From: an uncultured bacterium
GTDB taxonomy: Bacteria; Oederibacteriota; Muellerivitia; Muellerivitales; Muellerivitaceae
Assembly: GCA_964529445.1 (NCBI GenBank)
Contig: CAZGWJ010000001.1
Coordinates: 14,863-78,862, forward strand
Direction: 5' to 3'
DNA length: 64,000 nucleotides
Part shown: in pieces, positions 1-57,165 of the stretch
Layout: every line of letters begins with the position of its first letter
How positions within the stretch are numbered: the stretch's first letter is position 1
Notes under the pieces: generated by a model
What the model saw: only the letters and a program-made list of their open reading frames with translations
Told to the model about the DNA's origin: nothing
The model's database searches: none
Program-made: the position numbers and the translations under genes

Positions 1-1601
<1,601 letters not shown>

Positions 1602-1805: not shown

Positions 1806-1880
1806 GCCAACGCGAAGCCGTCCGCCTTTGGCGAGACCTCGCCATCAAGGGCTCTGGATGGCGGGCAGAGCCGCAGAGAA
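1806..1880. repeat. About 75-nt intergenic element, copy 1 of 2. The second copy is at 6321..6395, about 90% identical over the first roughly 60 nt.
   Basis: Shared run gccaacgcgaagccgtccgcctttggcgagacctcgccatcaaggg(c/t)tctggatggcgggc. It contains the dyad GGCGAG-AC-CTCGCC and a second hairpin GCCATC..GATGGC. Confidence 0.8.
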
Positions 1881-2061
1881 CTTCAGAATTATGAAGGGTT
1901 ATTGGGATGTGGCCAAATAGATTCGATCGGTATCAATTCAAAAAACGGTAAGCAATTCACTGGTGTCCAAGACGTCCGCCCTTCACGGGTCACGAGCCGT
2001 CAAACCCTTGTTTTGGACAGGCTCGAACACACAACCACGAAAAAGCCCCCTCTCCCCTTCC

Positions 2062-2085
2062 CCCTCTCCCGCAAGCGGGAGAGGG
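2062..2085. repeat. GC-rich hairpin CCCTCTCCCG-CAAG-CGGGAGAGGG, REP-like. Related copies are at 42433..42456, 31016..31039 and 57305..57327.
   Basis: Perfect 10-bp inverted repeat with the same stem sequence recurring at other intergenic sites. There is no clean U-tract directly after it on either strand. Confidence 0.6.
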
Positions 2086-2201
2086 CAATCATTCGAGCGT
2101 GAATTTCGCGACGAATGATGGGTGAGGGGACGTCTTGAGATGCCCTTCGGTTGAATGGTCTTGGACAGGTGTGTAAGCAATTTGAAAATGACTTTCTCAG
2201 C

Positions 2202-4657: not shown

Positions 4658-5044
4658 TCAGGTGTTGTTGTAGGTGAACCGAATCTCCGGCGGATGCTGG
4701 AGCGTGTGATGGATGGTGCAGGATTCGGCGGCTCGCTGGGCCACTTCCCTGAGATCGGGCGGGAGGCCGGCCGGGAGGTGGACCTGGATGTCGAAGGCGC
4801 CGATGCGGTGGGGTCCTTCGGCCATCGTGCCCGTCACGTCGACGGAAAGGCCGCGGGGTTCGAACCCCTTGCGGCGGAGGAATCTCGCCACGAAGAACCC
4901 GACGCAACCGGCCAGGGAGGCCGCCAGGTAATCGACCGGGGAGGGGTCCGCGGGCTCTCCCGGTTTCTGATCGGTGAAATAGGCATTGCCGCGGGTCCTC
5001 ATCTCCAACTTGTCCTCGCTGATCCAACGGGCGGTTGCTTGCAT
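4658..5044 (-). CDS. OsmC/Ohr-family peroxiredoxin-like protein
   Basis: 128 aa of OsmC-like size with the paired Cys context (LAGCVGFF ... AAESCTIHHTL). It sits 78 nt upstream of cydA on the same strand. Confidence 0.75.
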   Translation of the reverse strand: MQATARWISEDKLEMRTRGNAYFTDQKPGEPADPSPVDYLAASLAGCVGFFVARFLRRKGFEPRGLSVDVTGTMAEGPHRIGAFDIQVHLPAGLPPDLREVAQRAAESCTIHHTLQHPPEIRFTYNNT

Positions 5045-5122: not shown

Positions 5123-5335
5123 TTACTTGTTGCTCTGCTTCGTCGGGCAGGTGGAGATTCCCAATAGCGCGTAGGGCGTGCAGAACTGCAACTGGGCCGT
5201 CAGCAAGGCGGCGGCTCCCGCGATCCACGCGATCCACGCCGCAGTCCCCTGGAGAAAGAACCCAGCGACCACCAGGACGACTCCCACGACGTAACGGACG
5301 ATGCGGTCGGTCCCACCTACGTTTTTCTTGAACAT
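5123..5335 (-). CDS. DUF2892 (YgaP-like) small membrane protein
   Basis: MFKKNVGGTDRIVRYVVGVVLVVAGFF...TAQLQFCTPYALLGISTCP from the internal ATG at 5333-5335, preceded by an AGGAGG RBS. The listed ORF carries a 12-aa extension. Confidence 0.6.
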   Translation of the reverse strand: MFKKNVGGTDRIVRYVVGVVLVVAGFFLQGTAAWIAWIAGAAALLTAQLQFCTPYALLGISTCPTKQSNK

Positions 5336-5357
5336 GACACGCCTCCTGGAACTTGAT

Positions 5358-6268: not shown

Positions 6269-6320
6269 TATTCTATTATTTGTCAAGGGGCAAATGGCGA
6301 GGATAACGGCTTAATTCAAC

Positions 6321-6395
6321 GCCAACGCGAAGCCGTCCGCCTTTGGCGAGACCTCGCCATCAAGGGTTCTGGATGGCGGGCGAAGTCGCGAAGAA
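6321..6395. repeat. About 75-nt intergenic element, copy 2 (see 1806..1880)
   Basis: gccaacgcgaagccgtccgcctttggcgagacctcgccatcaagggttctggatggcgggc is near-identical to copy 1. The distal part is degenerate. Confidence 0.8.
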
Positions 6396-6512
6396 CTGCA
6401 TGGATCGGAGACGGAAACGGCCTGAGATTGCCACACCTCAGACCACGCCTACCCGCCCTGAGCGAGGCCGAAGGGTCGGCGCTGAGGTTCACAATGACGG
6501 ATATAGCACAAA

Positions 6513-6886
6513 TCAACCGGTCAGTTTAAGTATGCGACCCACCGAGAGATAGGTAAGCCAAAGGCCAATAACGAACAAGAGGATTCCCAGCAGTAGAGTA
6601 ATTGAGGGTCCGGGTGTCATGTCCCATATAAGAACACATAACCATAACCCCCGTTCCATGAGTGAGAGGCCAATTACACCGAACAATACACCCAGAATAA
6701 AATCTTTTATCTTTTTTTGTGCCACAGCTCGCATTCGTTACCGGCCCAGACCTCGTCCGGCCGGTCCTCGATGTGGACCCGCAAATACTGCAGGCCGTCG
6801 ATTTCCTTGATGTTGATGACCTTGCCCACGCCGCGCGTGATCTTGTTGAAAACCTCGTCGTCCGTCTCAAAAGGGAAGTCGCCCAT
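6513..6886 (-). pseudogene. Small membrane protein gene split by a frameshift at an A7 homopolymer (6711..6717). The N-terminal 59 aa and the C-terminal two-TM part are in different frames.
   Basis: Frame A from the ATG at 6884-6886: MGDFPFETDDEVFNKITRGVGKVINIKEIDGLQYLRVHIEDRPDEVWAGNECELWHKKR*. An A8 version would read ...WHKKKIKDFILGVLFGVIGLSLMERGLWLCVLIWDMTPGPSITLLLGILLFVIGLWLTYLSVGRILKLTG. The segment 6500..6720 is AT-rich relative to the genome. Confidence 0.4.
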
Positions 6887-7031
6887 GAAGGCACCTCGGG
6901 ATAGAAGGGTTGTTGCGGCTATTGTACCTCAAATGAAAGAAGAATTCGGAATGAGGAACGGGAAATAGCCGTCTTGGCGTGGGCCGAAGGCCCTTGGCGA
7001 ACTTGGCGGTGAAAAAAGGTTTTGGAAAGGA

Positions 7032-7859
7032 TCAGTCGGGCAGGCTTTGGATCCTCTCCACGCATTCGCGGATGAGGTAGTCGGGGGTGGAAGCGCCCGC
7101 TGTGATGCCCACCCGGGTCTTGCCTTTGAACCAGGCGGGATCGAGCTCCTGGGCCGTTTCGACGTGGTAGGTGGCGCTGGGGAGATGCGCCTCGCAGGTC
7201 TCGGCCAGTTTGTGGGTGTTGGAGGAGTTGCGTCCCCCGATCACCACCATGACCTCGACCCTGCGGGAAAGCTCCTCGGCGGATTGTTGGCGGCGCTGGG
7301 TGGGTTTGCAGATGGTGTTGACGGCCTCCACCCGGGCGCAACGCGCCTTCAGGAGGTCCACCATCTTCCCGAACTTGTCCATCAGGAGGGTGCTCTGGCA
7401 GATGACGCCGATCGCGGCGTCCGCGGGGACCTTCTCCACGTCCTCCGGCTTGTTGACGATGAGGGGGTCCTTCATGCGGCTGGCGATGCCCTTGACCTCG
7501 ACGTGGTTCGGGTCGCCCACGATGACGATGCGTAACCCCTTCGACTCCAGGTCCTGGCCCGCCTTGTAGATGCTCGTCACGAGGGGACAGGTCAAGTCCA
7601 CGACCTGGTGGTCCTTTTTCAATTCCTCCAGGATATTCACGTCCAGCCCGTGGGCCGTGATGACGACCGGGTCGTCACCGATGTCCGAGGACGCTTTCAC
7701 CATGCGCTTGTGTTCGCGTTCGAGACGGGCCACTTCCTGGGGGTTGTGGATGAGGGAACCGTAGATGGCCGCGCGCGGGAGCTCCTCGGCCTTCTGGATG
7801 GCCCGTTTCACGCCGGTGCAGAACCCGGCGGCATTGGCGATGAGGATCTCCCGTGGCAT
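7032..7859 (-). CDS. ispH: 4-hydroxy-3-methylbut-2-enyl diphosphate reductase
   Basis: MPREILIANAAGFCTGVKRAIQKAEE..., a typical IspH/LytB N-terminus with the conserved Cys, from the internal ATG at 7857-7859. Confidence 0.9.
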   Translation of the reverse strand: MPREILIANAAGFCTGVKRAIQKAEELPRAAIYGSLIHNPQEVARLEREHKRMVKASSDIGDDPVVITAHGLDVNILEELKKDHQVVDLTCPLVTSIYKAGQDLESKGLRIVIVGDPNHVEVKGIASRMKDPLIVNKPEDVEKVPADAAIGVICQSTLLMDKFGKMVDLLKARCARVEAVNTICKPTQRRQQSAEELSRRVEVMVVIGGRNSSNTHKLAETCEAHLPSATYHVETAQELDPAWFKGKTRVGITAGASTPDYLIRECVERIQSLPD

Positions 7860-30299: not shown

Positions 30300-30727
30300 A
30301 TTGATTTGCAGTAGGTGGGGCAAGGTTGAAAAGGCGGGTGTTTCTTTATATAGTAACGGGCCTTCAATGCCTTTCGGGTTCTCTTGCCCCGAATGGTGAG
30401 GGGCCCGAAGGGCCGCTCGAATCCATTGCGGGGCCTTTCGACTTGGCTCAAGGTTCAGGGTCCGGTGAGGGGTGAAGGAAGCTAGGGACGTTTATACCGA
30501 CCGCGAAGATGAAGATGGTTTTGTGCGGCAAGTATAATGTCCTCTTTGGGTGTTGTGATCGCAAAGACCGAAAAACGGGTCTTTCCGATGGTTCGATGAC
30601 AGAGGACGTTTACATCGAGTGGACGGATTGGGAGTAGGTATAAGACACTCGATGTAACGCCGATTTCTTTTGTCAGGATTACGAAAAACAAAGTGCGGTT
30701 TTTCGTAAAGCGAGTCGGTTGATAATC

Positions 30728-30804
30728 GGACGTTTAGCTCAGCTGGTTAGAGCGTCGCGTTCACATCGCGAAGGTCGCTGGTTCAAGTCCAGCAACGTCC
30801 ACCA
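30728..30804 (+). tRNA. tRNA-Val (anticodon CAC)
   Basis: GGACGUU acceptor stem, GCUC D-stem, anticodon loop UUCACAU, TΨC arm GCUGG-UUCAAGU-CCAGC, discriminator A, encoded CCA. Confidence 0.85.
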
Positions 30805-30814
30805 CCCAGAACAA

Positions 30815-30851
30815 AGGGTCTTGCCGAGCGGCAAGGCCCTTTTGTGTTTTA
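30815..30851 (+). terminator. Intrinsic terminator downstream of tRNA-Val
   Basis: 11-bp stem AGGGUCUUGCC-gagc-GGCAAGGCCCU followed by TTTTGTGTTTT. Confidence 0.75.
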
Positions 30852-30904
30852 AGGGGACGTTGTCTCACCACCTTGTTGTGTCCGGTGGACGCTGTCTTAC
30901 CAGT

Positions 30905-32910: not shown

Positions 32911-33146
32911 GACGCTCCTCCTTCAAGAAGGCCCGAAGCCCTCTATATTCCCCGTGGCAACCCGCCCGGGGTTGGGCGAGAGTTTAACAACGCAGGCAAG
33001 CAATAACAACAAATATCCCCCGTTTTTCGAGTCCTGCGCTTTCGGGGGGGCCGATGGGGGAAGGATTCTTCGGGCTGGGCGTTATGGGTGTGAAAGGTTT
33101 GAAAAGTGTGAAGGTGTGAAAGGGCAGGAAAAAGATGAACTTTTGG

Positions 33147-33192
33147 GTTGTTCTCCGCGTCTCTGCGTTTCCGCGGTTCCCGTTCCTGTGTT
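33147..33192. repeat. Dispersed CTCTGCG-decamer element, abutting the stop of the 564-aa gene
   Basis: gttgttctccgcgtctctgcgtttccgcggttcccgttcctgtgtt. Confidence 0.65.
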
Positions 33193-34887
33193 TTACGCCT
33201 TCATCTTGCGGAGGAACTCGAAGTTGCTCAGCCGGATCTCCGGGAAGCCCTGGGCGTCTGTGACGAGCCGCCCCCGGGAGTCGCGCGACACCATGACATG
33301 GTTGCCCCGAAGGTTCAGGTCCTCCACCCCCACGGCGGCCAATTTCCGGCGGGTCCGGTCCAGCAGGGCGAAGTACATGTCCTTGTCGATGAGGTTCTCC
33401 TTGTAGGCGCGCAGGGCGTCGATGCCCTCGTAGTAGTCGCCGTCCTGGTCGGCCAGCTTCTCGTCGGGTCCGTTCCAGTAGCCCCAGATGATGATGTAGT
33501 CGCGATTGGGCTTGAGGACGGGCTCCCCGTCGGGCGTGACGAGCACCTCGTGGGAATGGTACCGGGAACCGTCGAAGACGCTTCGGGAGATCTCGGTGGC
33601 GCTGTCGGACATGTAGATGGCGCGGGGATAGATGCAGGCCACGCCCCGCTGGGCCAGTTCCACGGCCAGGGAGACCTCCTCGAAGGGGCTGTTGTACCCG
33701 TGGGACAGGATCTTCTGCTCGTCCTCGCGGAAGGGGTCCATGTCGGGCTGTTGGCCCACGCGGGAGGCCTGCAGGACCAGGTGGATGCCGTCCTTGGTGA
33801 TGGTGTGGTACATCTCGCTGTAGACAGAGATCTTCGTCTTGGGGAAGTGCCGCCAGCGCTCGGGGAGGAAGTAGTCGTAGAGGACGGGGTCCTTCCCGAC
33901 GACCCAGAGGCGGCCCTTCACGCTCTCCACGCGTCCGTACACGTAATCCACCCCCAGCAGGTTGACGGCGTGCAGGCTGGATTCGGGGTTCTCCTCCGTC
34001 CGGACCTTGAAACGGTCCCGCTGGCGCTTCAGGTATTCCTGGCGCTTCTGCTGGCGCACGCGCTCCTCGTTGGAGAGGGTGCGCTCCAGGAGCTCGAAGT
34101 CCACGAGGGCGTAGAGGGTGCGCCCGTCGCGGGTGCGGGCCAGGGTGCGCTCCGATTCGGGCCGGACGATGATATGGTCCGGCTTGTTGTCCCGGACCTT
34201 GAAACCGGCGTCTTCCATGACCTGTTGGGCGTCCAGGGCCAGGCCTTTCATGTTCTCGCGGCTGATGATGCCGGCCGTGAAGGCCTGGTGGGCGTCGATG
34301 CCCTTGATCCACTCGTACACCACGGCGTAGAGGCGGTGCATGTCGAGGGTCACCTCGTCGTGCGAGCGCAGTTTCGAGAGCATCTTGTGTTCCTTGCGGC
34401 CGCTCTGCCAAAGGTCAACGGTCGCGGAGGCCACGAAGATGGCCAGCGGCTTCTGGACCACGATGCGCCGTCCCGAGTGGTAGAGCTTGTTGCGAAGCTC
34501 CTTGAGCAGGGAGAACTCCTCGAAGGGACTGTTGAAGGCCGCGCCCTCCAGCACGTCCAGTTCCTCAGCGCCGGGGATGTCCTGGCCCATGCGGTTCCAC
34601 TTCATCACGATGTCCTTGGAATGCCCGTTCACGGATTTGGTCCGGATCTTGTAGATGGAACTGGTGCCGGAAAGTCGCGTCGAATGCGATTCGAACCAGT
34701 CACGATCCAGCCAGTAGTTGGAAGGATCCAGCAGGTCCAGGAAGGGAAGGCCTTCCGCCGTGACATAAAGCTCGCCCGTGTCGAGGGTCAGGTGGGCATA
34801 CTCGACGCCCAGGACCTTGGTGATGCGGTTCTTTTTCCGGTCCTTGACGCCCTTGTGCCAGGTTTTCAGTTGGGAGGAAGGCGGCAT
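33193..34887 (-). CDS. Hypothetical 564-aa protein made of two homologous halves, each with atypical-kinase-like motifs (RIO/Kdo/APH-like fold suspected)
   Basis: Duplicated segments AAFNSPFEEFSLLKELRNK / GYNSPFEEVSLAVELAQRG. Half 1 has IVMKW, the hinge-like YEWIKG, DHIIVRP and LVDFELL. Half 2 has YIIIWGYW, GNHVMVSRD and IRLSNFEFL. Balanced composition, so the real strand is minus. Confidence 0.7.
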   Translation of the reverse strand: MPPSSQLKTWHKGVKDRKKNRITKVLGVEYAHLTLDTGELYVTAEGLPFLDLLDPSNYWLDRDWFESHSTRLSGTSSIYKIRTKSVNGHSKDIVMKWNRMGQDIPGAEELDVLEGAAFNSPFEEFSLLKELRNKLYHSGRRIVVQKPLAIFVASATVDLWQSGRKEHKMLSKLRSHDEVTLDMHRLYAVVYEWIKGIDAHQAFTAGIISRENMKGLALDAQQVMEDAGFKVRDNKPDHIIVRPESERTLARTRDGRTLYALVDFELLERTLSNEERVRQQKRQEYLKRQRDRFKVRTEENPESSLHAVNLLGVDYVYGRVESVKGRLWVVGKDPVLYDYFLPERWRHFPKTKISVYSEMYHTITKDGIHLVLQASRVGQQPDMDPFREDEQKILSHGYNSPFEEVSLAVELAQRGVACIYPRAIYMSDSATEISRSVFDGSRYHSHEVLVTPDGEPVLKPNRDYIIIWGYWNGPDEKLADQDGDYYEGIDALRAYKENLIDKDMYFALLDRTRRKLAAVGVEDLNLRGNHVMVSRDSRGRLVTDAQGFPEIRLSNFEFLRKMKA

Positions 34888-35035
34888 GGTCCCTCGTTGC
34901 GACGAACGGTTGGCTGATTATACACCGGGGTTAAAAAAGGAGGGCGGCTGAACACCCACAATTACCGCAGAGTCACAGAGGCCTGTCGATCGAGGAAGGA
35001 TCATCATGCCGTCAGAAGAAGTAAGATCTCTGTGT

Positions 35036-35085
35036 CTGAGCGCTTCTGCGGTTCTCGTTGCCGTTCCGCGGTCGTATCGGAATCC
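35036..35085. repeat. Dispersed CTCTGCG-decamer element
   Basis: atctctgtgtctgagcgcttctgcggttctcgttgccgttccgcggtcgt. Confidence 0.6.
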
Positions 35086-35116
35086 ATCCCCTCCATCGGT
35101 GGTTAAAATGGCTTGA

Positions 35117-35165
35117 GTTGTTCTCTGCGGCTCTGCGCCTCTGCGGTTCCCGTTTTCGTGTTGTC
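35117..35165. repeat. Dispersed CTCTGCG-decamer element (three tandem units), abutting the queD stop
   Basis: gttgttctctgcggctctgcgcctctgcggttcccgttttcgtgttgtc. Confidence 0.65.
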
Positions 35166-42607: not shown

Positions 42608-43342
42608 ATGAGCATCGAATCCGTCAAGGGCAAGTGGGCTTTGATCACTGGCGCGAGCCGGGGCGTCGGCAAGCAGGTCTCCCTCGCCATGGCCAAGCTG
42701 GGGACGAACCTCGTTCTCCACAGCCGGGATGCCGCCCACACCGACCCCGTCGCGAAGGAATGCCGGGCCCTCGGCGTGAAGGTGGCCCAGGTCGCGGGGG
42801 AACTCTCCGATCAGACCCAGGTGGATTCCATGCTGGATGCGGCCCTGAAGGCCGCGGGCCAGATCGACATCGTCTTCAACAACGCTGCCTTGATGACGAA
42901 GTATCGGCAGGACCCCTGGACCGTGACGGCGGAGGAATTTCGCACGAGTTTCGAGATCAACGTCATCGCACTGGCCCGCATCTGCAACCGCTTGGTGCCT
43001 CCCATGATCCAGCGCAAGTGGGGGCGTGTCGTCAACACGACCTCGGGCATCAAGGAACAGCCCGAATTGATCGCCTATTCCATCTCGAAGGGCGCGGTGG
43101 ACAAGTACGTGAGGGACTTTGCGCCTTCGTTGAAGGACACGGGGGTCATGATGAATCTGCTGGATCCGGGTTGGCTGAGGACGGACTTGGGTGGGCCCAA
43201 CGCCCCCAACGCGGTGGAGAGCGTCGTCCCCGGCGCCATCGTGTCGGCCCTGCTGGACGACGGCATCAGCGGTCGACTTTTCCGTGCGCAAGATTACGCG
43301 GGGATGGGTTTGGCGGATGCCCTGAAGAAAGCGACAAGCTGA
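42608..43342 (+). CDS. Short-chain dehydrogenase/reductase (SDR) family oxidoreductase
   Basis: WALITGASRGVGKQ (TGxxxGxG), NNAA, and catalytic YSISKGAVDK. Confidence 0.85.
   Translation: MSIESVKGKWALITGASRGVGKQVSLAMAKLGTNLVLHSRDAAHTDPVAKECRALGVKVAQVAGELSDQTQVDSMLDAALKAAGQIDIVFNNAALMTKYRQDPWTVTAEEFRTSFEINVIALARICNRLVPPMIQRKWGRVVNTTSGIKEQPELIAYSISKGAVDKYVRDFAPSLKDTGVMMNLLDPGWLRTDLGGPNAPNAVESVVPGAIVSALLDDGISGRLFRAQDYAGMGLADALKKATS
43225..43342. repeat. About 118-bp imperfect direct repeat, copy A (the functional 3' end of the SDR gene). Copy B is at 44066..44175, about 85% identical.
   Basis: cgccatcgtgtcggccctgctggacgacggcatcagcggtcgacttttccgtgcgcaagattacgcggggatgggtttggcggatgccctgaagaaagcgacaagctga versus cgccatcgttccggccttgctggacgacggcatcagcgggcgcctctttcgcgcgcaggatgacgcggggatgagcttggcggatgccctcaagaaggccgcgcaataa. 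Confidence 0.85.
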
Positions 43343-43370
43343 AATTTGACCTATTGAGAGGATATAACCA

Positions 43371-43745
43371 ATGTGTTATACTCCTGGTATGAAGGTGGAG
43401 TTCTACAAGACTCCAAGCGGTCGTAAACCGGTCGAGGATTTCATACTTGGCCTCTCGGCGGGCGACCAAGGCGAGTTTGCGGGCGTGAAACGAGGGATCG
43501 AGAAGTACGGACTCAAGTGCCCGCTGGTGATATTTAAGAACCTGTCGGGCAAACTTTGGGAGGTCAAGTTTTCAGGGGAAGGCGGGAAGTACAGGATCGC
43601 ATATGTCGTGATTACGGGGCCTGAAATGGTTTGGCTCCACGCCTTCAAGAAGAAGACCCAAAAGACCCCCAAGGATGACTTGGAACTGTCGTTGAAACGG
43701 ATGAAGGAGGTATTGGACCATGAAAAAGCACAAAAGAACCGATAA
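43371..43745 (+). CDS. HigB/RelE-superfamily toxin of Gp49-like (PF05973-type) family
   Basis: MKVEFYKTPSGRKPVEDFILGL...KLWEVKF...YRIAYVV. Alternative start at 43389. Lower GC than its surroundings. Confidence 0.7.
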   Translation: MCYTPGMKVEFYKTPSGRKPVEDFILGLSAGDQGEFAGVKRGIEKYGLKCPLVIFKNLSGKLWEVKFSGEGGKYRIAYVVITGPEMVWLHAFKKKTQKTPKDDLELSLKRMKEVLDHEKAQKNR

Positions 43746-44061
43746 GCCCTATTACGATCCGACTTCTTTCTTCGCGAAACTGGAAAGGAACCCCGAGGTC
43801 AAACGCCGTGCTGAACAGAAGGAAAGAATGTTCGACCTGGCCATGGAGGTTCGGAAGCTCAGGGAGGATGCCGGACTTACCCAAAAGACACTCGCTGCCA
43901 GGATCGGGACCAAGCAAAGCGCGATCTCCCGTGTTGAAAGCGGTCAGTACAAGTCCAGCCCCTCCATTAGCCTGCTGGAAAGCGTGGCGATGGCTTGCGG
44001 TAAACGGCTTGAGATCAGTTTCGTGAAACCCAAGGTGCATGCGCACGCGGGGCGGTCCTAA
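43720..44061 (+). CDS. HTH XRE-family antitoxin (HigA-like)
   Basis: LREDAGLTQKTLAARIGTKQSAISRVESGQ is an XRE HTH. It overlaps the toxin gene by 26 nt, as is typical for toxin-antitoxin pairs. Confidence 0.7.
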   Translation: MKKHKRTDKPYYDPTSFFAKLERNPEVKRRAEQKERMFDLAMEVRKLREDAGLTQKTLAARIGTKQSAISRVESGQYKSSPSISLLESVAMACGKRLEISFVKPKVHAHAGRS

Positions 44062-44065
44062 TACG

Positions 44066-44175
44066 TCGCCATCGTTCCGGCCTTGCTGGACGACGGCATC
44101 AGCGGGCGCCTCTTTCGCGCGCAGGATGACGCGGGGATGAGCTTGGCGGATGCCCTCAAGAAGGCCGCGCAATAA
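44066..44175. repeat. Copy B of the duplicated SDR 3' end (displaced remnant encoding ...ALLDDGISGRLFRAQDDAGMSLADALKKAAQ*)
   Basis: See 43225..43342. It begins one nucleotide after the higA stop. Confidence 0.85.
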
Positions 44176-44259
44176 ACGGGGTCACGCTTCACAGACTGAA
44201 AACAAAATGCCTGCCACCTTCACGCCTTCAAACACACCGTATAATATCAATGTAGGATC

Positions 44260-47200
44260 TTAGCGTACTCCATATAGAAGGTTCCTCAGAACCTTTCCTT
44301 GTTTAGTTGTGAACCTGAACTGGAACCCGTACTCCCGACCACTCCACGGGCGGGTGCATTGCGCGCCCACCTTGATCAGCACCTTGTTCCAGCCCTTCTT
44401 CAATGAGACCGGCTTCTTGAAGAGCGTCCTCAACAGCAATCCCTTCTCGTTCACGACGAGCTTTCCGTTCACCCAGGCCTTCATCGAATCATCACCTGCG
44501 GCCTCGACATAGGCGGTCCTCGCCTTGTCCGACCACACCGAACACTTGGCGTAGGCCACGCCCTGCTCGGGGAAGGTCACTCCGCATTCCCTGAAGTCCA
44601 CGTAACCGAAGCAGGTGAATTCCCGGCCCGGGGCCCTCAGCCACGACAGGCCCTTCCCATAGGACGCGAGATCCGCGTTCTTCTCGGGGCCGTACACACG
44701 GTCCAGACCCTTCCCGTCCTTGTTGTCGAAGGAACCCACCACCGAGAACCAGGCGGGGAATCCGGAACCCCACTCCACGTTGGAGACCTGCTTCTTCACG
44801 GTCTTCTTGCCGTCGAGAACCTCGACGGTGATCTTGGCCTGGCTCAAGACCGGGAGGGCATCGGCCTGGGGGCTCAGCTCCCAAACGAGATGGCACAGTT
44901 CTCCCACCTTTACGATCAAGTCCGGGTCCGGCTTGCTGTCCACGCCCCAGCCCGCGGGGGCAACGATTGCGACCTTGGCACCCAATTCACGCCCGGTGTT
45001 GTTCTCGATGAGGGCATGGATCTTGAGGATCCCTCCGGTCTTCAGGTCATGGTCAACATGGATCTGGATGGGGTTCAGGTTCTCTACCCCACGCTTGCCG
45101 TCATGCACGACGCTCTTGTAGCGGCGGCCCTTGGGCAGGATCCCGGTGTTTCCGTCGACCTTCCCGACCTTCAAGCGGCCCTTGGCGTTCGTCGCGAGGG
45201 GTGTCTCCGCGTATTGGCCCCTCTCATATCCATAGGTGAGACCGTCGTCGTCGTAGAGGACGAAAGCACCGGGTTTCCCGGCGTAGGTATGCACCGTGAC
45301 GTCGGTCAACGGCTTCTCAAGGGCATAGGCCATCTCGGGGCCCATGGGGATGATGCTTCCGGCCCGGGCGAAGAGGGGGATGCGACCCAAAGGCGCACCT
45401 ACCGTGATCGTGCGGCCGCCCTTGATCTTCTCGCCCGTCCTGAAGTCGTACCAATCCCCCTTCGGCAGATAGACCTCACGCGTGCGGGCGTCCTCTTGCA
45501 GGATGGGGGCCACCAACAGGGCTGGGCCGAACATGAACTGGTCGGTGGCGGCGACTGCTTTCGGGTCCTCGGGGAAAGCCATCAGCATGGGACGCATGAT
45601 GGGCGCGCCGGTCAGGTGCACCTGGCGGGCCAGGGAATAGATGTAGGGCATCAGGCGGTAACGAAGGGCGATATGGTCGGCCACGATCCTTTCGATCGCA
45701 GGGCCGTAGGTCCAGGCCTCGTTCTCGGGCTTGGTGCCATGCGTGCGGAACAGGGCGTTGAACACGCCCCACTCGAACCAGCGGGCGTAGAGTTCGGGCG
45801 TGAAGGGACGGTAGGTCATGAAGCCGCCTGCGTCGGTGCACCACCAGGGTTGTCCCGAGAGGGAAACGCCTTGGCCGATCACCACCTGGTCGCGGAAAAC
45901 CTCCCAAGAAGCCTCGATGTCGCCGGACCAAAGCGTGGTGCCGTAACGCTGGACGCCGGCCCAGGTCGAACGGGCGAGGTTGAAGACGCGATCCGTGAAG
46001 TCCTTGCGCTGACCCTCGTAGAGACCCTTGGTCCAGAGCAGGGTATAGATGTTGTGCACGCGTTCGCGCGCCCCCAGGAAATGCTTCGTGGCAGGCGGGT
46101 GGTGCTCCAACTCGCCCATGTCGGTCCAATAACCGCGCACACCCAGCTCGAAGAGGGGCTTGATGTCGCCCCACCAGGTCTTGCGGGCCGCAGGATTCGA
46201 ATGGTCCACCGAGGGGTTGCCCGGTCCGGGCATGTCGTTGATGAAGCCGCGGGATTTGTAGGACTCGTAGAGCCTTGAGGTGCGGGTCATGTAGGGATGC
46301 TGGGCCTGCAACACCTTCACGTTAAGTTTTTCCATCTCGCGGAAAAGGGCGGGGGGATCGGGCCAGTTCTCCTTGTCCCAGGAGAGGTCGCCGAAATCCT
46401 TGAACCACATCCAGTCGATGACGAGCACGTCGAGAGGAAGGCCACGGCGGCGGTATTCGCGGGCCACGCGCAGGAATTCCTCCTGCGTGCGGTAGCGGTT
46501 CTTGCATTGGATGAAGCCCAGCGCCCACTTGGGCGGTATGGGGGAGGCGCCCGTGAGGGCCGCGTAACCGGCCAAGAGGCCGTCGGCGCGGTCGCGCAGA
46601 ATGAGGAAGAGGTCCATCACCCCGTCGTCGAGAAGGATGGCCATCCGGTCCGGGTGGTTCTCGCCGGAATGCTGGTCCCAGGCCCAGGGCGCGGAGCACC
46701 AGTTCCAGCCGAAGTCGGTGGGGCCTTCGCCCACCTTTGCCCCGCCCACGGCGAAGCGCATGGCCCAGGACGAGTTGACGAGGCAACCCCATCCGGCGCT
46801 CGTGATGAAGAAGGGCATGCCGTCGTTGCCACTGCGGCGCTTGCCGGCCCATTCGTGCCACATGCGGCGCTCGTGCCCGCGCTGGTCGAGGTTCGCCATG
46901 GGGTCCTGGCCGAGACCGTAGACCCTCTCGTCCTTCTTCAACTCGAACCGGACCACGGTGACCTGCTTGAGCCCGGTCGGGGGCGGGGCGATCTTGTTCA
47001 TGCGGTGGGCGGCCAGCGTCCGGGGCTCGTGACGGACCTCGGCGGTTTTGCCAGTAGGCGTGGAGAGGATCAGGCGGCCCTTGGGGTCGGTCACGCGGAA
47101 CGAGAAGGGCGAGAGGGTGACTTCGAGGATGCGGGAGGCGGTCGCGAGGCGCATCTTACCGGCGGATTTGGACAAACGGGCCGGGATGAAGCAGGGGGGA

Positions 47201-47346
47201 TGCTCGACGACGAAGGTCTCCTCGACCTTGGGGGTGCCGGGCGTGAAGCGGTAGCGCAGGATGTCGGGGGAGGTGAACCCCAGGCGGGCCTCGCCGCGCG
47301 GGGTCTTGACGGTCAATTCACTCTCATTGAAAAAATAGGCAGGCAT
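44260..47346 (-). CDS. GH31 alpha-glucosidase/alpha-xylosidase with C-terminal beta-sandwich (CBM/galactose-binding-like) domain
   Basis: WALGFIQCKNRY, LDVLVIDWMWF (catalytic nucleophile region), YWTDMGE. The start is probably MPAYFFNESE at 47346. Confidence 0.85.
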   Translation of the reverse strand: MPAYFFNESELTVKTPRGEARLGFTSPDILRYRFTPGTPKVEETFVVEHPPCFIPARLSKSAGKMRLATASRILEVTLSPFSFRVTDPKGRLILSTPTGKTAEVRHEPRTLAAHRMNKIAPPPTGLKQVTVVRFELKKDERVYGLGQDPMANLDQRGHERRMWHEWAGKRRSGNDGMPFFITSAGWGCLVNSSWAMRFAVGGAKVGEGPTDFGWNWCSAPWAWDQHSGENHPDRMAILLDDGVMDLFLILRDRADGLLAGYAALTGASPIPPKWALGFIQCKNRYRTQEEFLRVAREYRRRGLPLDVLVIDWMWFKDFGDLSWDKENWPDPPALFREMEKLNVKVLQAQHPYMTRTSRLYESYKSRGFINDMPGPGNPSVDHSNPAARKTWWGDIKPLFELGVRGYWTDMGELEHHPPATKHFLGARERVHNIYTLLWTKGLYEGQRKDFTDRVFNLARSTWAGVQRYGTTLWSGDIEASWEVFRDQVVIGQGVSLSGQPWWCTDAGGFMTYRPFTPELYARWFEWGVFNALFRTHGTKPENEAWTYGPAIERIVADHIALRYRLMPYIYSLARQVHLTGAPIMRPMLMAFPEDPKAVAATDQFMFGPALLVAPILQEDARTREVYLPKGDWYDFRTGEKIKGGRTITVGAPLGRIPLFARAGSIIPMGPEMAYALEKPLTDVTVHTYAGKPGAFVLYDDDGLTYGYERGQYAETPLATNAKGRLKVGKVDGNTGILPKGRRYKSVVHDGKRGVENLNPIQIHVDHDLKTGGILKIHALIENNTGRELGAKVAIVAPAGWGVDSKPDPDLIVKVGELCHLVWELSPQADALPVLSQAKITVEVLDGKKTVKKQVSNVEWGSGFPAWFSVVGSFDNKDGKGLDRVYGPEKNADLASYGKGLSWLRAPGREFTCFGYVDFRECGVTFPEQGVAYAKCSVWSDKARTAYVEAAGDDSMKAWVNGKLVVNEKGLLLRTLFKKPVSLKKGWNKVLIKVGAQCTRPWSGREYGFQFRFTTKQGKVLRNLLYGVR

Positions 47347-51895: not shown

Positions 51896-52930
51896 TTGGA
51901 CACCCCCCTTCGACCCTATTCCCCCCTCTCCTTCCTCAAGGGACCCGTCTTCCTCTGGGTCCTTTGGACCGCTGTCATCGGCGGCGTGGCCTGGTGGTAC
52001 ACCCGCGACCTTTTCATCGCCCAGGCCGTGGGGGGTACCGGCGCCATCGCCCTTCTCCTACATTCCATCTGGCTCAAGGTGCGCCTCGACAGCCGCTGGC
52101 TCGTCGATCTCCAGGTGTTCCTCGTCCGCACCGGCGCCTTGTCCGATCAGCACCGTGTGAAGCGCATCTTCATGCCCTGGGAGGCGGGTGCCGCCCGGAG
52201 GAAATTCCTGGCCTCGACCCTGGAAAATGTGCGCGACATGGAAAAGAGGATGCACGAGGCGCGTCATGCCCTCGACAAGTTCGTGGGGACCAAGGCCTCC
52301 CAGTTCGCCGCGAAATACGCTTCGGGCAACCAATGGGGCGGGGAGATGGTGCCCGTCTATGTCCTTTTCGCCGATGTGCGGGGGTTCACGCGCATGACGG
52401 AAAAATTGAAGCCCACCGAGACCGTCACCTTCCTGAACCGCTTGTTTTCGGCCCTCGAGGAGGTGGTCCGGGAATCCGGCGGCGAGGTCAACAAGTACAT
52501 CGGGGATTCCATCCTGGCTTTCTTCCCCCGCTCACTCGAGGATGAGGCCCCGGCCGTCAAGCGGATCCTACTCGGAGCCCTCCGGATGATGGACCGGTTC
52601 CTCGAGATCGACGCGAAATACAAGAGCGATTACAGCGTGACGCCGGAGGTGGGATTCGGCATGGGCTTGGCCGCGGGCGTGGCCGTCCTCGGCAACGTGG
52701 GGTCCATGAACCGCATGGAGTTTACGCTGGTGGGCGATACCGTGAATACGGCCTCCCGCCTCTGCTCCATCGCTGAGCACGGCCAGATCCTCGTGAACGA
52801 GGAGATGGCCCGGGTCGCGGAGGGGATGTTCCGCATGGAGGCCCTGGGGGCCGTCAAGCTGAAGGGGAAGGCCGAGCCGGTCGTTCCCACCGTGATCATG
52901 GGGGAGAAACTGCAGCCCGGGCTGGCATGA
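51896..52930 (+). CDS. Membrane-anchored class III adenylate cyclase (paralogue 1)
   Basis: Two N-terminal TM helices, then the cyclase homology domain (CHD): FADVRGFT (metal Asp), NKYIGDS (metal Asp plus Lys), a Thr in the LVGDTVNTASRL region (Lys/Thr pair, so adenylyl-specific). Confidence 0.8.
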   Translation: MDTPLRPYSPLSFLKGPVFLWVLWTAVIGGVAWWYTRDLFIAQAVGGTGAIALLLHSIWLKVRLDSRWLVDLQVFLVRTGALSDQHRVKRIFMPWEAGAARRKFLASTLENVRDMEKRMHEARHALDKFVGTKASQFAAKYASGNQWGGEMVPVYVLFADVRGFTRMTEKLKPTETVTFLNRLFSALEEVVRESGGEVNKYIGDSILAFFPRSLEDEAPAVKRILLGALRMMDRFLEIDAKYKSDYSVTPEVGFGMGLAAGVAVLGNVGSMNRMEFTLVGDTVNTASRLCSIAEHGQILVNEEMARVAEGMFRMEALGAVKLKGKAEPVVPTVIMGEKLQPGLA

Positions 52931-53753: not shown

Positions 53754-54818
53754 GTGAGCGCCCCCATGCCCGAGTCCCCCAAACCGCGGTTTCCCGGTTT
53801 TCTCCGATCGCTCCTGCCCTGGCTTGCCTGGCTGGGCGTCAGCGCCGCGGTCGGGGTTTTCCTCTCGGCGGCCTTCAACAACAGGGATGTCTTCCTGTGG
53901 GCGGCCGGAACCGCAGCGGTCGCCCTGCTGGTTTTTCGTTGGGCCTATGACGCTTACCGCCTGCTGTCCGTGATGGATCTCTTCTATCGGCATCATATGC
54001 TTCCGGCCGTCCTCCGGCGTCCCTGGATCTTCTGGCCCTGGGGACCTGCACTGGGCTTGAGAATCGTCCTCCGCGCGACCGTGCACGAGTACCAGAAGGT
54101 CTCCAAGAAGATGCACGAGGCCACGGGGGCGCTCGAGAAGTTCGTGGGCGCAGGCGCGGCCGAGCGCAGTATCCGGGCCGCCGCGAAACCGGCCATGGGC
54201 GGGGAATCCCGGAGGGTCTTCTGCCTGTTCGCGGATGTCCGCGGCTTCACGCGCATGACCGAGCGCCTCAAGCCGGAGGAGACGGTGGATATCCTGAACC
54301 GCATCTTCACCGAACTGGACGCCGTCATCGTCCAGTACGGGGGAGAGATCAACAAGTACATCGGGGACGCCGTTTTCGCGTATTTCAGGTGTCCCTACGA
54401 CAACGAGGAGGTCGCGGCCCGCAACGTCCTGCGCGCGGCCTTGAGGATGCAGGAGTCCTTCGACGCCTTGAACGTGAGGATCCGGAACGCCTCCTACAGC
54501 GCCCCGGTGGAGATCGGGCTGGGCATCGGGTTGACGGCGGGAACGGCCATCCTGGGCAGCATGGGCAGTGCCAACCGGATGGAATACACCCTCATCGGCG
54601 ATGTCGTGAACCTGGCCTCCCGGCTGTGCGCCATCGCAAAACCCCTTGAAGTGCTCGTGAACGAGGAGATGGCCGAGATGGTGCAGGAGTATTTCGACAT
54701 GACCTCCCTGCCCCCCGTGGAGTTGAAGGGGAAGACGGGCCTGCAGGTCCCCTATGTCATCGTCGGCGAGAGGATGATGCTGACCAAGGGGCTCGCCGAG
54801 AAGGGAAAACGTCTTTGA
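53754..54818 (+). CDS. Membrane-anchored class III adenylate cyclase (paralogue 2)
   Basis: FADVRGFTRMTERLKPEET...NKYIGDAVFAYF...LIGDVVNLASRL. Confidence 0.8.
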   Translation: MSAPMPESPKPRFPGFLRSLLPWLAWLGVSAAVGVFLSAAFNNRDVFLWAAGTAAVALLVFRWAYDAYRLLSVMDLFYRHHMLPAVLRRPWIFWPWGPALGLRIVLRATVHEYQKVSKKMHEATGALEKFVGAGAAERSIRAAAKPAMGGESRRVFCLFADVRGFTRMTERLKPEETVDILNRIFTELDAVIVQYGGEINKYIGDAVFAYFRCPYDNEEVAARNVLRAALRMQESFDALNVRIRNASYSAPVEIGLGIGLTAGTAILGSMGSANRMEYTLIGDVVNLASRLCAIAKPLEVLVNEEMAEMVQEYFDMTSLPPVELKGKTGLQVPYVIVGERMMLTKGLAEKGKRL

Positions 54819-55870
54819 ACCGCATTCCTTCCGAAAAGGTTCCTCCGCCGCGGGAACACCGGCCTGGGCGGGATGGTGCCGTCGAGGCGGCGTTCATCCT
54901 CTTCGCCCTTCTGGGGGTCGCCGGGATCCTCTTGTCCGCGAACCGGGATTCCTTGCCAGCCGCCTGGAGGATCGCCGCTCCCTGGATGACGGGTCTGGGG
55001 GTCTTGGGCCTGCTTTGGTGGTGTGGCGCATCGCTGGTGATGCTGCTCCAGCACCAGCTGGATGCGGTCAAGGCCCTTCCGGCCGGCTTCCAGCGCATGA
55101 GGTTGTGGCAGGTCGGAACCCCGCTGGATGGATTCCACCGCCTGGCAACGGCACTCGCGAAGGCGCAGGTCGAAAGGGATGAACGGATCGCTTCCCTTCA
55201 GGCCAGCCATGACCGCTACGTCGGGACCACGATGTCGGATCGGGCGCGCCGCATGGCCTCCCAGGAGGAACTGGGCGGCGTCAAGAGGCGCGTCTTCGTC
55301 ATGTTCTCCGACATCCGCGGTTTCACCCGCATGACCGAGCAGTTGAAGCCCGAGGAGGTCGTCGAGGTTCTCAACATCTGTTTCACGGAGTTCGAGAAGG
55401 TGATCCGCGAGAACGGGGGGGAGATCAACAAGTACATCGGCGACGCGGCGTTCGCGTATTTCCGGATGCCGCACGGCGATCTCGAAGCGGGGGTCCGGGC
55501 CGTTCTTCGCAGTGCGGTGAAGATGCAGGAGCGGTTCGATTTCCACAACTCCCGATTCAAGGTCTCCTACAGCAAGCCGGTCGAGATCGGGCTGGGGCTC
55601 GGCGTGACGGCGGGGGAGGCCATCCTCGGGAACATCGGTTCGCCCCAGCGCATGGAGTTTACCCTGATCGGGGACGTGGTGAACCTGGCCTCGCGGCTTT
55701 GCGGCATCGCCCGGCACGGGCAGATCCTCGTCAGCGAGGAGATGGCCGAGATCGCGAAGGCCTGGTTCGAGCTTTCGCCCCAACCGGAGGTGCAGTTGAA
55801 GGGAAAGCTGGTGCCCCACCGGCCTTACGCGGTCGTGGGGGAACGGATGGGTTTCGGGAGGGATATGTAG
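54815..55870 (+). CDS. Membrane-anchored class III adenylate cyclase (paralogue 3). The TTG start overlaps the upstream stop.
   Basis: FSDIRGFTRMTEQLKPEEV...NKYIGDAAFAYF...LIGDVVNLASRL. Confidence 0.75.
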   Translation: MNRIPSEKVPPPREHRPGRDGAVEAAFILFALLGVAGILLSANRDSLPAAWRIAAPWMTGLGVLGLLWWCGASLVMLLQHQLDAVKALPAGFQRMRLWQVGTPLDGFHRLATALAKAQVERDERIASLQASHDRYVGTTMSDRARRMASQEELGGVKRRVFVMFSDIRGFTRMTEQLKPEEVVEVLNICFTEFEKVIRENGGEINKYIGDAAFAYFRMPHGDLEAGVRAVLRSAVKMQERFDFHNSRFKVSYSKPVEIGLGLGVTAGEAILGNIGSPQRMEFTLIGDVVNLASRLCGIARHGQILVSEEMAEIAKAWFELSPQPEVQLKGKLVPHRPYAVVGERMGFGRDM

Positions 55871-55935
55871 GAAACGGCTTCCATGTTAATGGGGTGATAG
55901 GTGCGATTGGGAACGTCGGTTCTGAGGGAGAGCGG

Positions 55936-57165
55936 ATGAAGAGGAAGCGAACCGCGGAGAAGGGAAAGCCGGCCTACGCCCATTTCGGCTTGAAGCGGGA
56001 CCCCTTCAGCACGCTGGCCCTCCAGCCCTTCGAGATGGAATTCTTCGCGGGTCGCCGGGCTCTCATCGAGCGTCTTGTCGCGGATCTCCATTCCCTGTCG
56101 AACACGGGATTGGCGGGCGAGCCGGGCATGGGCAAGTCCAGTCTCCTGAACCTCCTGCGCGAGAAGGCGGGCCGAGGCGTCGCCGTCGTGTCCATCGGCG
56201 TTCCGCTGGACGACGCGAACTATCTCCTGGTCGAGCTATTGGGTGCGCTGATGGAAGCCCTTCCTCGCTCGGGAGGGCTCGACCGCCGGGCGGTGAACCG
56301 CCGGATGAGGGAAGGCGTCCTGGACAAGGCGACCCTGCTTCGGCTGGTCCGAACCCTCCTGGCGCGTTCAAGAAAACCGGTCGCGGTCCTCGTGGACGAC
56401 ATCGAGAAGATCCGGGGGGACCGGATTCGCCATCTCACCCGGTCCGATCGCACGCTCCAGTTCCTGGAGGAATTGAAGGTTCTCTTCGAGAGTCGCAATG
56501 CCTGTTTCTTCGTGACGCTCCAGGAGGAGTTCTTCTCGAAGGTCACCCAGGTCGTCAAGGAGGGGGCCGAGCCCACCGTGCTCGGGCTTTTCAGGAACAT
56601 CGTGAAGGTGGACCGGTTCCCGATCCCGGAACTCCGCGAGGTGCTGGCCACGCGGCTGAAGGCCGCAGGGCACCCGGGGGGCATCGAGGCGGTCGTGGAG
56701 GACGAGGGGATGCGCCTGGCCCTTGGCCTTTCCGACGGGAACCCCCGCCGTTTCCTGTACCTGATGTCCGAGGGCATGGCGAGGGCCGCCCTGCGCCGGG
56801 CTTCCCGCATCGGTTTCGAGGATGTTTTCGGCGCCTTGAACGAACACTTGAAACTCGACCGCGTGTGCATGAAACTGATGTTCTTCCTCTCGAAGTCCGG
56901 GCGCGCCACTGCGGCCAACGTGGACCTGCAGGCGTTCATGGAGCTCGATGCCGTCTCGCTCTCGCGGAGGTTCGAGGTTCTCGCGAAGAACCGCCTGGTG
57001 TCCGCCGTGGACGTGGTGGAGGGATCCCGGGTCTACGCCCTGCCGGGATTGGAGGGTTCCATCGAGCATCCTTCCGCCTCGGGGAAGGATGCCGGGAAAA
57101 CGCAGTCCGCGGTCGGACTTTCCCAAAAGGGCGAGAAGATGTACCTGCTGGACGAGGAGAACTGA
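55936..57165 (+). CDS. ExeA/GspA/MshM-like AAA ATPase (AAA_22-type)
   Basis: N-terminal HFGLKRDPFS motif, then the Walker A GEPGMGKSSLLN. The listed ORF 55699.. carries a 79-aa junk extension. Confidence 0.6.
   Translation: MKRKRTAEKGKPAYAHFGLKRDPFSTLALQPFEMEFFAGRRALIERLVADLHSLSNTGLAGEPGMGKSSLLNLLREKAGRGVAVVSIGVPLDDANYLLVELLGALMEALPRSGGLDRRAVNRRMREGVLDKATLLRLVRTLLARSRKPVAVLVDDIEKIRGDRIRHLTRSDRTLQFLEELKVLFESRNACFFVTLQEEFFSKVTQVVKEGAEPTVLGLFRNIVKVDRFPIPELREVLATRLKAAGHPGGIEAVVEDEGMRLALGLSDGNPRRFLYLMSEGMARAALRRASRIGFEDVFGALNEHLKLDRVCMKLMFFLSKSGRATAANVDLQAFMELDAVSLSRRFEVLAKNRLVSAVDVVEGSRVYALPGLEGSIEHPSASGKDAGKTQSAVGLSQKGEKMYLLDEEN

Follow-up and report, generated by a model that had tools for sequence, protein, structure and literature searches.

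A toxin-antitoxin cassette between two copies of a gene end in an uncultured bacterium and its probable entry by integration into the 3' end of a short-chain dehydrogenase gene

Results

The insert at the end of the SDR gene

We analysed a 64,000-nucleotide (nt) stretch of DNA from an uncultured bacterium of the family Muellerivitaceae (contig CAZGWJ010000001.1 of assembly GCA_964529445.1, positions 14,863 to 78,862 of the forward strand; hereafter the window), in which the 3' end of a short-chain dehydrogenase (SDR) gene is present twice with a toxin-antitoxin pair between the two copies (Table 1). A repeat scan of the window (seed 11, minimum length 40 nt, copies at most 6 kb apart) returned five repeat families, namely this SDR-end pair, three tandem cyclase paralogues and three short repeats that are mostly or wholly intergenic. 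In the SDR-end pair the direct repeat found by the search covers 102 nt (43231-43332 and 44064-44165) with 85% identity and a spacing of 833 nt, and alignment carries it on to the stop codons, a TGA at 43340-43342 in copy A and a TAA at 44173-44175 in copy B. The in-frame translation of copy B is VAIVPALLDDGISGRLFRAQDDAGMSLADALKKAAQ followed by the stop, and the 244-amino-acid (aa) open reading frame (ORF) of the SDR gene, which ends with copy A, is unbroken and keeps the conserved residues.

An earlier note, made from the sequence of the window, had described an SDR end duplicated downstream at about 85% identity with stops in both copies, only a Gp49/HigB-like toxin gene and an XRE antitoxin gene between them, and a GC content below that of the flanks. 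Repeat search and alignment bear out the duplication, and profile matches identify the Gp49 toxin gene and the XRE antitoxin gene as the only content between copies A and B. The lower GC content is confirmed as well, with 0.523 for positions 43343-44063 versus 0.631 for the SDR body, 0.635 for the neighbouring GH31 gene and 0.626 for the window, and the GC content at third codon positions (GC3) is 0.68 in the toxin gene and 0.67 in the antitoxin gene versus 0.87 in the SDR gene. A second sample (L002; ENA ERZ27257495) has the same arrangement in an independent assembly, which makes an assembly artefact very unlikely.

Table 1. Features of the SDR locus and the tandem cyclase genes (positions in the window)
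Feature	Position	Strand	Basis or remark
SDR (short-chain dehydrogenase) gene	42608..43342	+	244 aa, intact, apparently hybrid; PF00106 E 1.9e-37
Repeat copy A, attL-like, SDR terminus in present use, ends in TGA	43231..43342	+	repeat search and alignment
Longest run identical between the copies, 22 nt	43251..43272	+	contains the putative core; copy-B counterpart 44084-44105
Putative crossover core GGCATCAGCGG	43262-43272 and 44095-44105	+	L131/L132 breakpoint and L133 arm
Putative cassette-supplied replacement terminus, last 23 codons and stop	43273..43342	+	mapping of the core
Promoter-like site TTGAGA-17-TATACT	43354..43382	+	consensus match only
Toxin gene, Gp49/HigB-like, RelE/ParE superfamily	43389..43745	+	PF05973 E 1.5e-17
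Antitoxin gene, XRE-type helix-turn-helix (HTH), 113 aa	43720..44061	+	PF01381 (HTH_3) E 1.8e-13
Conserved cassette right end: last ~45 nt of the antitoxin gene, TAATAC, 30-nt SDR-like arm, core	44015..44105	+	comparison with L133
Repeat copy B, attR-like, ends in TAA	44064..44175	+	repeat search and alignment
Apparently cassette-borne arm in copy B	44066-44094	+	comparison with L133
Displaced host terminus in copy B, ends in TAA	44106-44175	+	matches L129
Native spacer, displaced SDR end to convergent GH31 stop	44176..44259	.	~50 nt longer than in the empty site of L129
GH31 glycoside hydrolase, convergent right-hand neighbour	44260..47346	-	PF01055 E 1e-85
Three tandem class III adenylate/guanylate cyclase paralogues	51896-52930, 53754-54818, 54815-55870		PF00211 E 1e-23 to 6e-25

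Empty and occupied sites in relatives

The SDR falls into a 90%-identity protein cluster of five members, and the contigs of all five were examined. In L129 and L130, whose SDR genes are identical to each other and share 89.9% nt identity with the window SDR, the gene lies 34 nt from the convergent GH31 gene without an insert; L129 carries a GH10 gene upstream of it, and the GH31 neighbour is found in every syntenic relative (L004, L129 and L130). The SDR end of L129 and L130 reads KKAAQ-stop with AACGGGGTCGCGC behind it and so has the copy-B tail, not that of copy A: in the window, copy B ends in KKAAQ-stop, AACGGGGTCACGC, and copy A in KKATS-stop, AATTTGACC, a tail absent from all relatives. 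The match of the empty-site tail to copy B suggests that the cassette supplies the terminus now used, KKATS-stop, and that copy B keeps the native tail. Thus, the comparison proposed in the earlier note, a search of close relatives for an SDR gene with the copy-B end and no toxin-antitoxin pair, was successful.

The agreement between copy B and the empty site of L129 comprises the tail and the next 12 nt. Further downstream, two motifs of the spacer at 44176-44259 recur elsewhere, ACGGGGTC.CGC in L129 (p~0.017) and ATGCCTG.CA..TTCACG downstream of copy B in L004 (p~0.007), and such shared motifs past the stop occur only downstream of B copies. A continuation of the repeat past the stop into a common 'leader' after the A copies was not supported, as local alignments tested against shuffled sequences gave p values of 0.15-0.67. 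We also observed a perfect 14-nt inverted match between SDR coding sequence (42773-42786; GGCGTGAAGGTGGC) and the spacer 3' of copy B (44213-44226). It falls in the 18-nt motif common to the spacer and L004 and could be due to chance or be a piece of an older rearrangement.

The site is reused, as two other integrase-less cassettes occupy the SDR end in relatives. L004, with 83% nt identity, carries another toxin-antitoxin pair of the HI1419/HI1420 type at the same site, consisting of a TIGR02683 'upstrm_HI1419' toxin (E 2.9e-22) and a TIGR02684/PF21716 antidote. This pair is flanked by its own SDR-end duplication of 126 nt with 92% identity, which starts just 18 nt away from the start point in the window. 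Between copy B and GH31 of L004, outside the repeat-bounded cassette, lies a 200-aa ORF (6446-7048; GC 0.405) that has no match in Pfam, NCBIfam or PADLOC and may stem from an earlier insertion at this place.

The other occupant becomes visible in a comparison of L131 and L132, which are identical over 138 nt upstream and nt 1-674 of the SDR gene, show five synonymous differences at nt 675-702 and diverge completely from nt 726. L131 runs on into GC-rich sequence ending in a GGATC motif that is also present just before the GH31 stop in the window and in L129; by its sequence, the L131 site is likely to be empty and the counterpart of L132 and L133, with the contig ending before GH31. In L132 the sequence that follows is low-GC cargo (GC 0.46), and L132 and L133 are one element from two independent assemblies (NCBI and JGI) with 2 differences in 1022 nt. 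In L133 the replacement SDR terminus is followed by a gene of the UDG superfamily and an ORF of 105 aa; an XRE gene truncated at its N-terminus comes next, and behind TAATAC lies a displaced SDR end, whose tail and downstream sequence match L131. All three cassettes are tightly packed, with gaps of 28-82 nt and 2-32 nt between genes and repeats.

A protein scan of genome contigs yielded 80 more distant orthologous loci (59-74% identity), and tblastn detected no second copy of the SDR C-terminal peptide in any of them, indicating that only the clade of the window has the duplication. Scanning metagenome contigs with the SDR protein gave nothing above 61% identity and hence no useful relatives. 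The closest genome matches are metagenome-assembled genomes (MAGs) of candidate division FCPU426 with SDR identities of 71-74%, and the closest of them (L009, on the same contig as L005) also has a GH10 gene upstream of the SDR gene. In an FCPU426 MAG with a 74% identical SDR (L006 2440-3660; also L005, L007 and L008), about 1 kb of DNA that is A+T-rich as judged by eye follows the SDR gene and includes an ORF of 126 aa with direct repeats of 23 nt (AATTTGATGGTTCGAAAATCGTT; 417 nt apart) on either side. No SDR-end duplication was found in L006, and the region downstream of the SDR gene seems to be variable in more distant relatives also.

The genome-contig matches (L009-L088) form an SDR orthogroup with 59-74%, mostly 62-71%, identity, and carry the labels FCPU426, Verrucomicrobiota, Proteobacteria (alpha, beta and gamma), Chloroflexota, Armatimonadota, Acidobacteria and Planctomycetota. 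Such similarity between phyla is unusually high and points to repeated horizontal transfer of the SDR gene itself; some MAG labels may mislead. Repeats of 90-115 nt flank the SDR orthologue itself in L038 (1759-1848 and 3380-3470) and, at several positions, in L051; they may be dispersed repeats or signs of mobility of the SDR gene.

Mapping of the crossover core

Only L131, L132 and L133 allowed the crossover to be placed. The breakpoint between L131 and L132 lies directly after GGCATCAGCGGCCGCTTCTT. The truncated XRE gene of L133 corresponds to the 3' two-thirds of the window antitoxin gene (175/211 nt, 83%; 24 synonymous and 6 nonsynonymous codon differences), and the right end of the cassette is identical in 88/93 nt (95%), versus 121/150 nt in the upstream antitoxin stretch. 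Window and L133 have a common junction with copy B, GGGGCGGTC(C/A)TAATAC^GTCGCCATCG (^, junction), and the motif CACGCGGGGCGGTCMTAATAC is confined to the window, L002 and L133. The arm of copy B together with the core (42 nt) agrees in 41/42 positions between window and L133 but is unlike the native arm of either host, indicating that copy B is cassette sequence, not host sequence, in its 5' part.

Breakpoint, arm and the 22-nt run identical between the copies together point to GGCATCAGCGG as the site of exchange. From this mapping we infer that copy A consists of a host 5' part (~40 nt) and the cassette terminus and copy B of a cassette arm (~40 nt) and the displaced host terminus, and such hybrid copies are the product expected of one reciprocal crossover between a circle and the chromosome. 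The earlier note had assumed that the cassette brings a replacement terminus, which agrees with the KKATS-stop tail; this picture is refined in that the crossover appears to lie inside the repeat at the core, making both copies hybrid. Copies A and B are equally far from L129 (0.84-0.85 over the 96 nt compared), and the nt identity of the window SDR gene to L129 is ~90% over the body and 83-84% over the last ~135 nt.

We also noticed that copy B stands in the reading frame of the antitoxin gene, with only the TAA stop between them (window 44059-44175; L133 1314-1430). Readthrough would join an SDR-like tail to the antitoxin, although the arrangement was probably inherited with the junction rather than being functional.

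Composition of and selection on the gene ends

The GC3 of copy A is 0.71 and thus cassette-like, whereas that of copy B is 0.86 and host-like, the SDR body having 0.87. By hand count, 13/23 codons of the replacement terminus end in G or C versus 19/23 codons of the displaced terminus in copy B. For copies A and B the ratio of nonsynonymous to synonymous substitution rates (omega; Nei-Gojobori) has a pooled value of 0.054, with 0.035 in L132/L133, 0.053 in the window and 0.069 in L004. In the window the codon differences between the copies comprise 10 synonymous and 3 nonsynonymous changes (binomial p = 3.5e-4 versus the neutral expectation). This predominance of synonymous differences indicates that the copies diverged as working gene ends in separate genomes and did not arise by duplication in place.

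Displaced termini and their empty-site counterparts likewise differ with a low omega, 0.076 for window copy B and L129 and 0.029 for L133 copy B and L131, so that the displaced termini still look selected, suggesting that the displacement is recent relative to the divergence of the lineages. The one conspicuous change is a Tyr to Asp exchange in copy B of the window, at a conserved position that is Tyr or Phe in seven close homologues. The replacement terminus shows a synonymous divergence (dS) of 0.8-1.25 to every sampled relative, and copies A and B share the lineage-typical Leu in GRLF and the gene length of 244 aa.

The toxin-antitoxin pair

By family, gene order and overlap the pair appears to be an ordinary HigB/HigA-type module. 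The profile matches reach 63.8 bits for the toxin (PF05973; cut-off 23.9) and 50.7 bits for the antitoxin (PF01381; cut-off 23), with no NCBIfam match for the toxin. The toxin gene precedes the antitoxin gene, as in the homologous pairs of L124 and L127, and overlaps it by 26 nt. Its ORF was called mechanically from 43371, whereas alignments with homologues begin at the ATG at 43389; the 196 homologues are mostly 110-111 aa long, with a query cover of 88%. The promoter-like site begins 12 nt past the SDR stop and is the only one found, versus 0.3 expected. It is overlapped by a 6-6-6 inverted repeat, TATAAC/GTTATA (43363-43380), which, being like the promoter a consensus match only, may be an operator.

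In the contexts of the closest toxin homologues (L124-L128; 65-72% identity) we saw no gene-end duplication but only short flanking repeats of 24-26 nt. L124 and L127 are unrelated contigs; in L124 a 26-nt direct repeat with 96% identity (3802-3827 and 5329-5354) brackets the Gp49-XRE pair, and in L127 a 24-nt palindrome (3849-3872 and 4887-4910) lies on either side of it. Further toxin-antitoxin islets may retain junction scars.

Recombinases and other sites

The 35 scanned ORFs of the window contain no integrase or transposase domain, and no recombinase is present in the cassettes of the window, L004 or L133, in line with the earlier statement that the cassette lacks an integrase. An integron cassette was ruled out, since attC-like folding of cassette ends and repeats was no better than that of shuffled sequences (z -0.71 to +1.31) and neither IntI nor attI was found in the window. 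Read by eye and without a host dif for comparison, the core region CTGGACGACGGCATCAGCGGCCGC showed no dif-like dyad. The only tRNA gene of the window, tRNA-Val (anticodon CAC; 30728-30804), lies in a low-GC stretch (30301-30900) with no island or integrase beside it.

Of the other repeats, the 152-nt family at 52622, 54486 and 55559 was rejected as an instance of the same phenomenon because it represents the three tandem cyclase paralogues, which are followed by a STAND NTPase gene (55699-57165). An 88-nt direct repeat (1798-1885 and 6313-6400; 90% identity, 4.5 kb apart) adjoins low-GC stretches (1701-2200 and 6401-6900) and has no Rfam match; its first copy lies inside the mechanically called ORFs 2-1810 (-) and 1368-2102 (+), leaving its intergenic status uncertain, and the pair may represent a dispersed repeat element. 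The ORF 33193-34887, for which no Pfam match was found, is flanked by three T/C-rich direct repeats of 50 nt (33143-33192, 35018-35067 and 35113-35162).

Discussion

Integration of a small cassette into the SDR 3' end

The repeat, its hybrid copies, the empty site, two other occupants of this site, the shared right end and the signatures of purifying selection can be observed directly, and we consider it probable that a small non-autonomous cassette entered the 3' end of the SDR gene by Campbell-type integration. The empty site, the hybrid copies and the omega values support the idea of the earlier note that the locus is the scar of a site-specific integration into a gene 3' end with a replacement terminus. 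The SDR 3' end would then serve as attachment site for a family of integrase-less cassettes of 0.8-1.3 kb. In the window the cassette would extend between the cores of copies A and B, with core GGCATCAGCGG, terminus of 23 codons and stop, promoter/operator, HigB-like toxin gene, XRE antitoxin gene, TAATAC and 30-nt arm following one another. If circularised, it would hold one unbroken 108-nt imitation of the SDR end, with a predicted attP (copy-B arm, core and copy-A terminus) reading ...GGGGCGGTCCTAATACGTCGCCATCGTTCCGGCCTTGCTGGACGACGGCATCAGCGG^TCGACTTTTCCGTGCGCAAGAT..., and a single reciprocal crossover at the core between this imitation and the chromosomal gene would insert it. The SDR gene would be kept intact with the terminus of the cassette, whereas the host terminus would be displaced downstream as a dead fragment.

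The circular intermediate, the enzyme of the crossover and addiction to the toxin-antitoxin pair are the inferred parts of this scheme. The crossover could be made by an unlinked site-specific recombinase acting in trans or by RecA on the 22-nt identical block, two routes for which the expected crossover position is identical and which the data do not tell apart. With 95% identity between window and L133, whose host SDR genes differ by 15%, the conserved right end gives a modest hint of a protein-binding site. The flanking direct repeats could also recombine and delete the cassette. Antitoxins are labile whereas toxins persist, so that loss of a toxin-antitoxin pair is penalised. A cell losing the cassette would accordingly be left with the toxin as its labile antitoxin disappears, and this penalty might be the reason why two of the three occupied sites carry toxin-antitoxin cargo and why L133, lacking the toxin, retains the HTH part of the antitoxin. 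The composite structure of L133 might reflect a toxin-antitoxin cassette already resident at the site, whose left repeat took in a second cassette before a deletion occurred.

Several observations weigh against integration of a mobile cassette or at least complicate it. All relatives are short metagenomic contigs, and the databases hold only five SDR variants of the lineage. The window alone leaves the crossover point unplaced, copies A and B being equidistant from L129, and in L004 the GC3 values of the copies are reversed (copy A 0.91, copy B 0.77). Although the upstream backbones of L133 and L131 are identical, the host part of copy B in L133 is only 89% identical to the L131 terminus, which implies a history beyond one simple integration, with additional recombination. 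The antitoxin genes of window and L133 differ by 17%, close to the 15% between the host SDR genes, so that shared descent of an old insertion may account for this pair. The closest toxin homologue outside the source is only 72% identical, and searches of plasmid, phage and IMG/VR collections with the cassette gave no match. Neither a circular form nor an attP junction nor an integrase-bearing autonomous relative was encountered, and an autonomous element with this att site was missing both from the five variants of the lineage and from the plasmid, phage and IMG/VR entries, a very thin sampling.

Alternative origins

Instead of mobile units, the cassettes might be remnants of larger integrase-bearing islands that eroded to a toxin-antitoxin pair with att scars and are now static, moving at present only through homologous recombination of the flanking core genes. 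There are published models for this, toxin-antitoxin-only islets (PMC13617665) and cis-mobilisable elements (CIMEs; PMC5704250), and L133 testifies to internal turnover, as the toxin gene and the 5' part of the antitoxin gene have been replaced by the UDG-like gene and the 105-aa ORF while the ends were kept; the similar divergence of antitoxin and host genes between window and L133 would also fit. Erosion, however, would have had to trim three independent occupants to within 2-82 nt of their repeats without leaving pseudogene debris, no contig examined has an integrase-bearing relative at the SDR site, the purifying-selection pattern of the displaced termini speaks for a recent displacement, and L131 and L132 are identical over 812 nt but differ in occupancy. 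We therefore regard static remnants as rather unlikely, if to be taken seriously. Of the two origins considered in the earlier note, a minimal mobile toxin-antitoxin unit or the residue of a decayed island, reuse of the site makes the mobile unit more probable than a one-off decay product.

The duplication could also arise without a circle or an att site if linear DNA from a donor that already had the toxin-antitoxin pair behind its SDR gene recombined by SDR homology on the left and was joined illegitimately within the recipient SDR end on the right. Such homology-facilitated illegitimate recombination predicts exactly the order of donor terminus, toxin-antitoxin pair and recipient terminus, and the identity between the SDR genes of window and L129 does drop from ~0.90 to 0.83-0.84 over the last ~135 nt. 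Yet the junction TAATAC^GTCGCCATCG and the 30-nt arm are common to window and L133, whose host SDR genes differ by 15%, which argues for a junction that travels with the cassette rather than being made anew; moreover, the arm does not resemble the native sequence of either host, and it is unlikely that random joins would place the start of the duplication in the L004 cassette type within 18 nt. This origin is accordingly improbable. Still harder to sustain is an origin in which the SDR end was duplicated in tandem at its own site, one copy drifted and the toxin-antitoxin pair was inserted later between the two: the Leu in GRLF and the 244-aa gene length common to both copies would be explained, but a dead copy should have accumulated mostly nonsynonymous changes instead of an omega of 0.05, neither the copy-A tail nor the copy-B arm has a counterpart in the host lineage, and an empty site exists. 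That metagenome assembly joined strain variants is scarcely credible, even though every dataset consists of metagenomic contigs, as the full structure was assembled independently in L002 and the 93.6-kb source contig, the L132/L133 junction was obtained from both NCBI and JGI data, and copies with 85% identity would not collapse at k=141.

Comparison with known systems

Campbell-type integration of a small cassette finds its closest analogue in e14 and phage 21, which, according to PMC13626634 citing Hill et al. (1989), enter the 3' end of icd in Escherichia coli and leave the pseudogene icdC; the same account has excision of e14 recombining both copies into a chimeric gene. As at the SDR locus, the insertion lies within a protein-coding 3' end, an alternative terminus preserves gene function, the native C-terminal piece is displaced to the far side of the insert and the copies differ mainly synonymously. 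However, e14, a prophage of 15 kb, encodes an integrase and an excisionase, whereas the insert of the window comprises 0.83 kb, carries a toxin-antitoxin pair only and lacks a recombinase; in relatives of the window its site is taken by other tiny cassettes.

CIMEs of streptococcal systems of integrative and conjugative or mobilisable elements (ICEs and IMEs) are flanked by att sites, lack integration and transfer genes and take part in accretion at gene 3' ends (PMC5704250). The window locus similarly keeps attL- and attR-like ends without integration or transfer genes, and the L133 composite fits accretion followed by deletion as described there. CIMEs, however, are decay products of an identifiable family of mobilising ICEs or IMEs, whereas the SDR-end cassettes have no known autonomous partner, are far smaller and possess, instead of a short core, an att repeat of 108-126 nt of coding sequence. 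The toxin-antitoxin-only chromosomal islets of Belot et al. (2026), for which recombination at flanking core genes has been invoked (PMC13617665), are likewise compact, consist of a type II pair without mobile-element genes and occupy spots of high turnover, and the loss of the toxin and retention of the antitoxin in L133 agree with them; their model does not include a mechanism at the level of the junction, whereas here the scar is preserved and mapped to a core inside a gene.

In sedentary chromosomal integrons, toxin-antitoxin cassettes are described as common and as stabilising the arrays (PMC13108822). The SDR-end cassettes resemble them in being integrase-less, smaller than 1 kb and directed to one dedicated site, with a recombinase that would be encoded elsewhere, but they differ in that no attC-like fold, IntI or attI was found, that the window cassette has a promoter-like site of its own and that the recombination site imitates a gene terminus. 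A dependence on a host recombinase without an own integrase would also be shared with IMEX elements. These integrase-less elements exploit the host XerCD at dif, whereas the target here is a coding sequence rather than the replication terminus and shows no dif-like sequence by eye.

Implications

How chromosomal toxin-antitoxin modules without visible mobile-element genes enter their sites has been described as still unclear (PMC13617665). The SDR locus provides a complete junction record, with an empty site, three tiny occupants, a mapped core, a shared cassette-borne arm and a replacement terminus, which makes this question directly testable. It suggests that docking by replacement of a gene end, known from prophages like e14, operates at the scale of 0.8-kb cassettes in an uncultured lineage. 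For annotation it is a warning that short in-frame fragments of a gene end beside toxin-antitoxin pairs can be att scars.

More tentatively, and with doubt prevailing, the SDR 3' end might dock an undescribed system of promoter-bearing, integrase-less cassettes below 1 kb that use the imitation of a gene terminus as recombination site, carry a toxin-antitoxin pair or other genes as cargo and would be exchanged among related genomes via a recombinase encoded elsewhere or by RecA alone. If this is true, the system would be a functional analogue of integron cassettes with the att site embedded in coding sequence, and it would show a specific way in which 'orphan' chromosomal toxin-antitoxin modules could move with no mobile element in sight.

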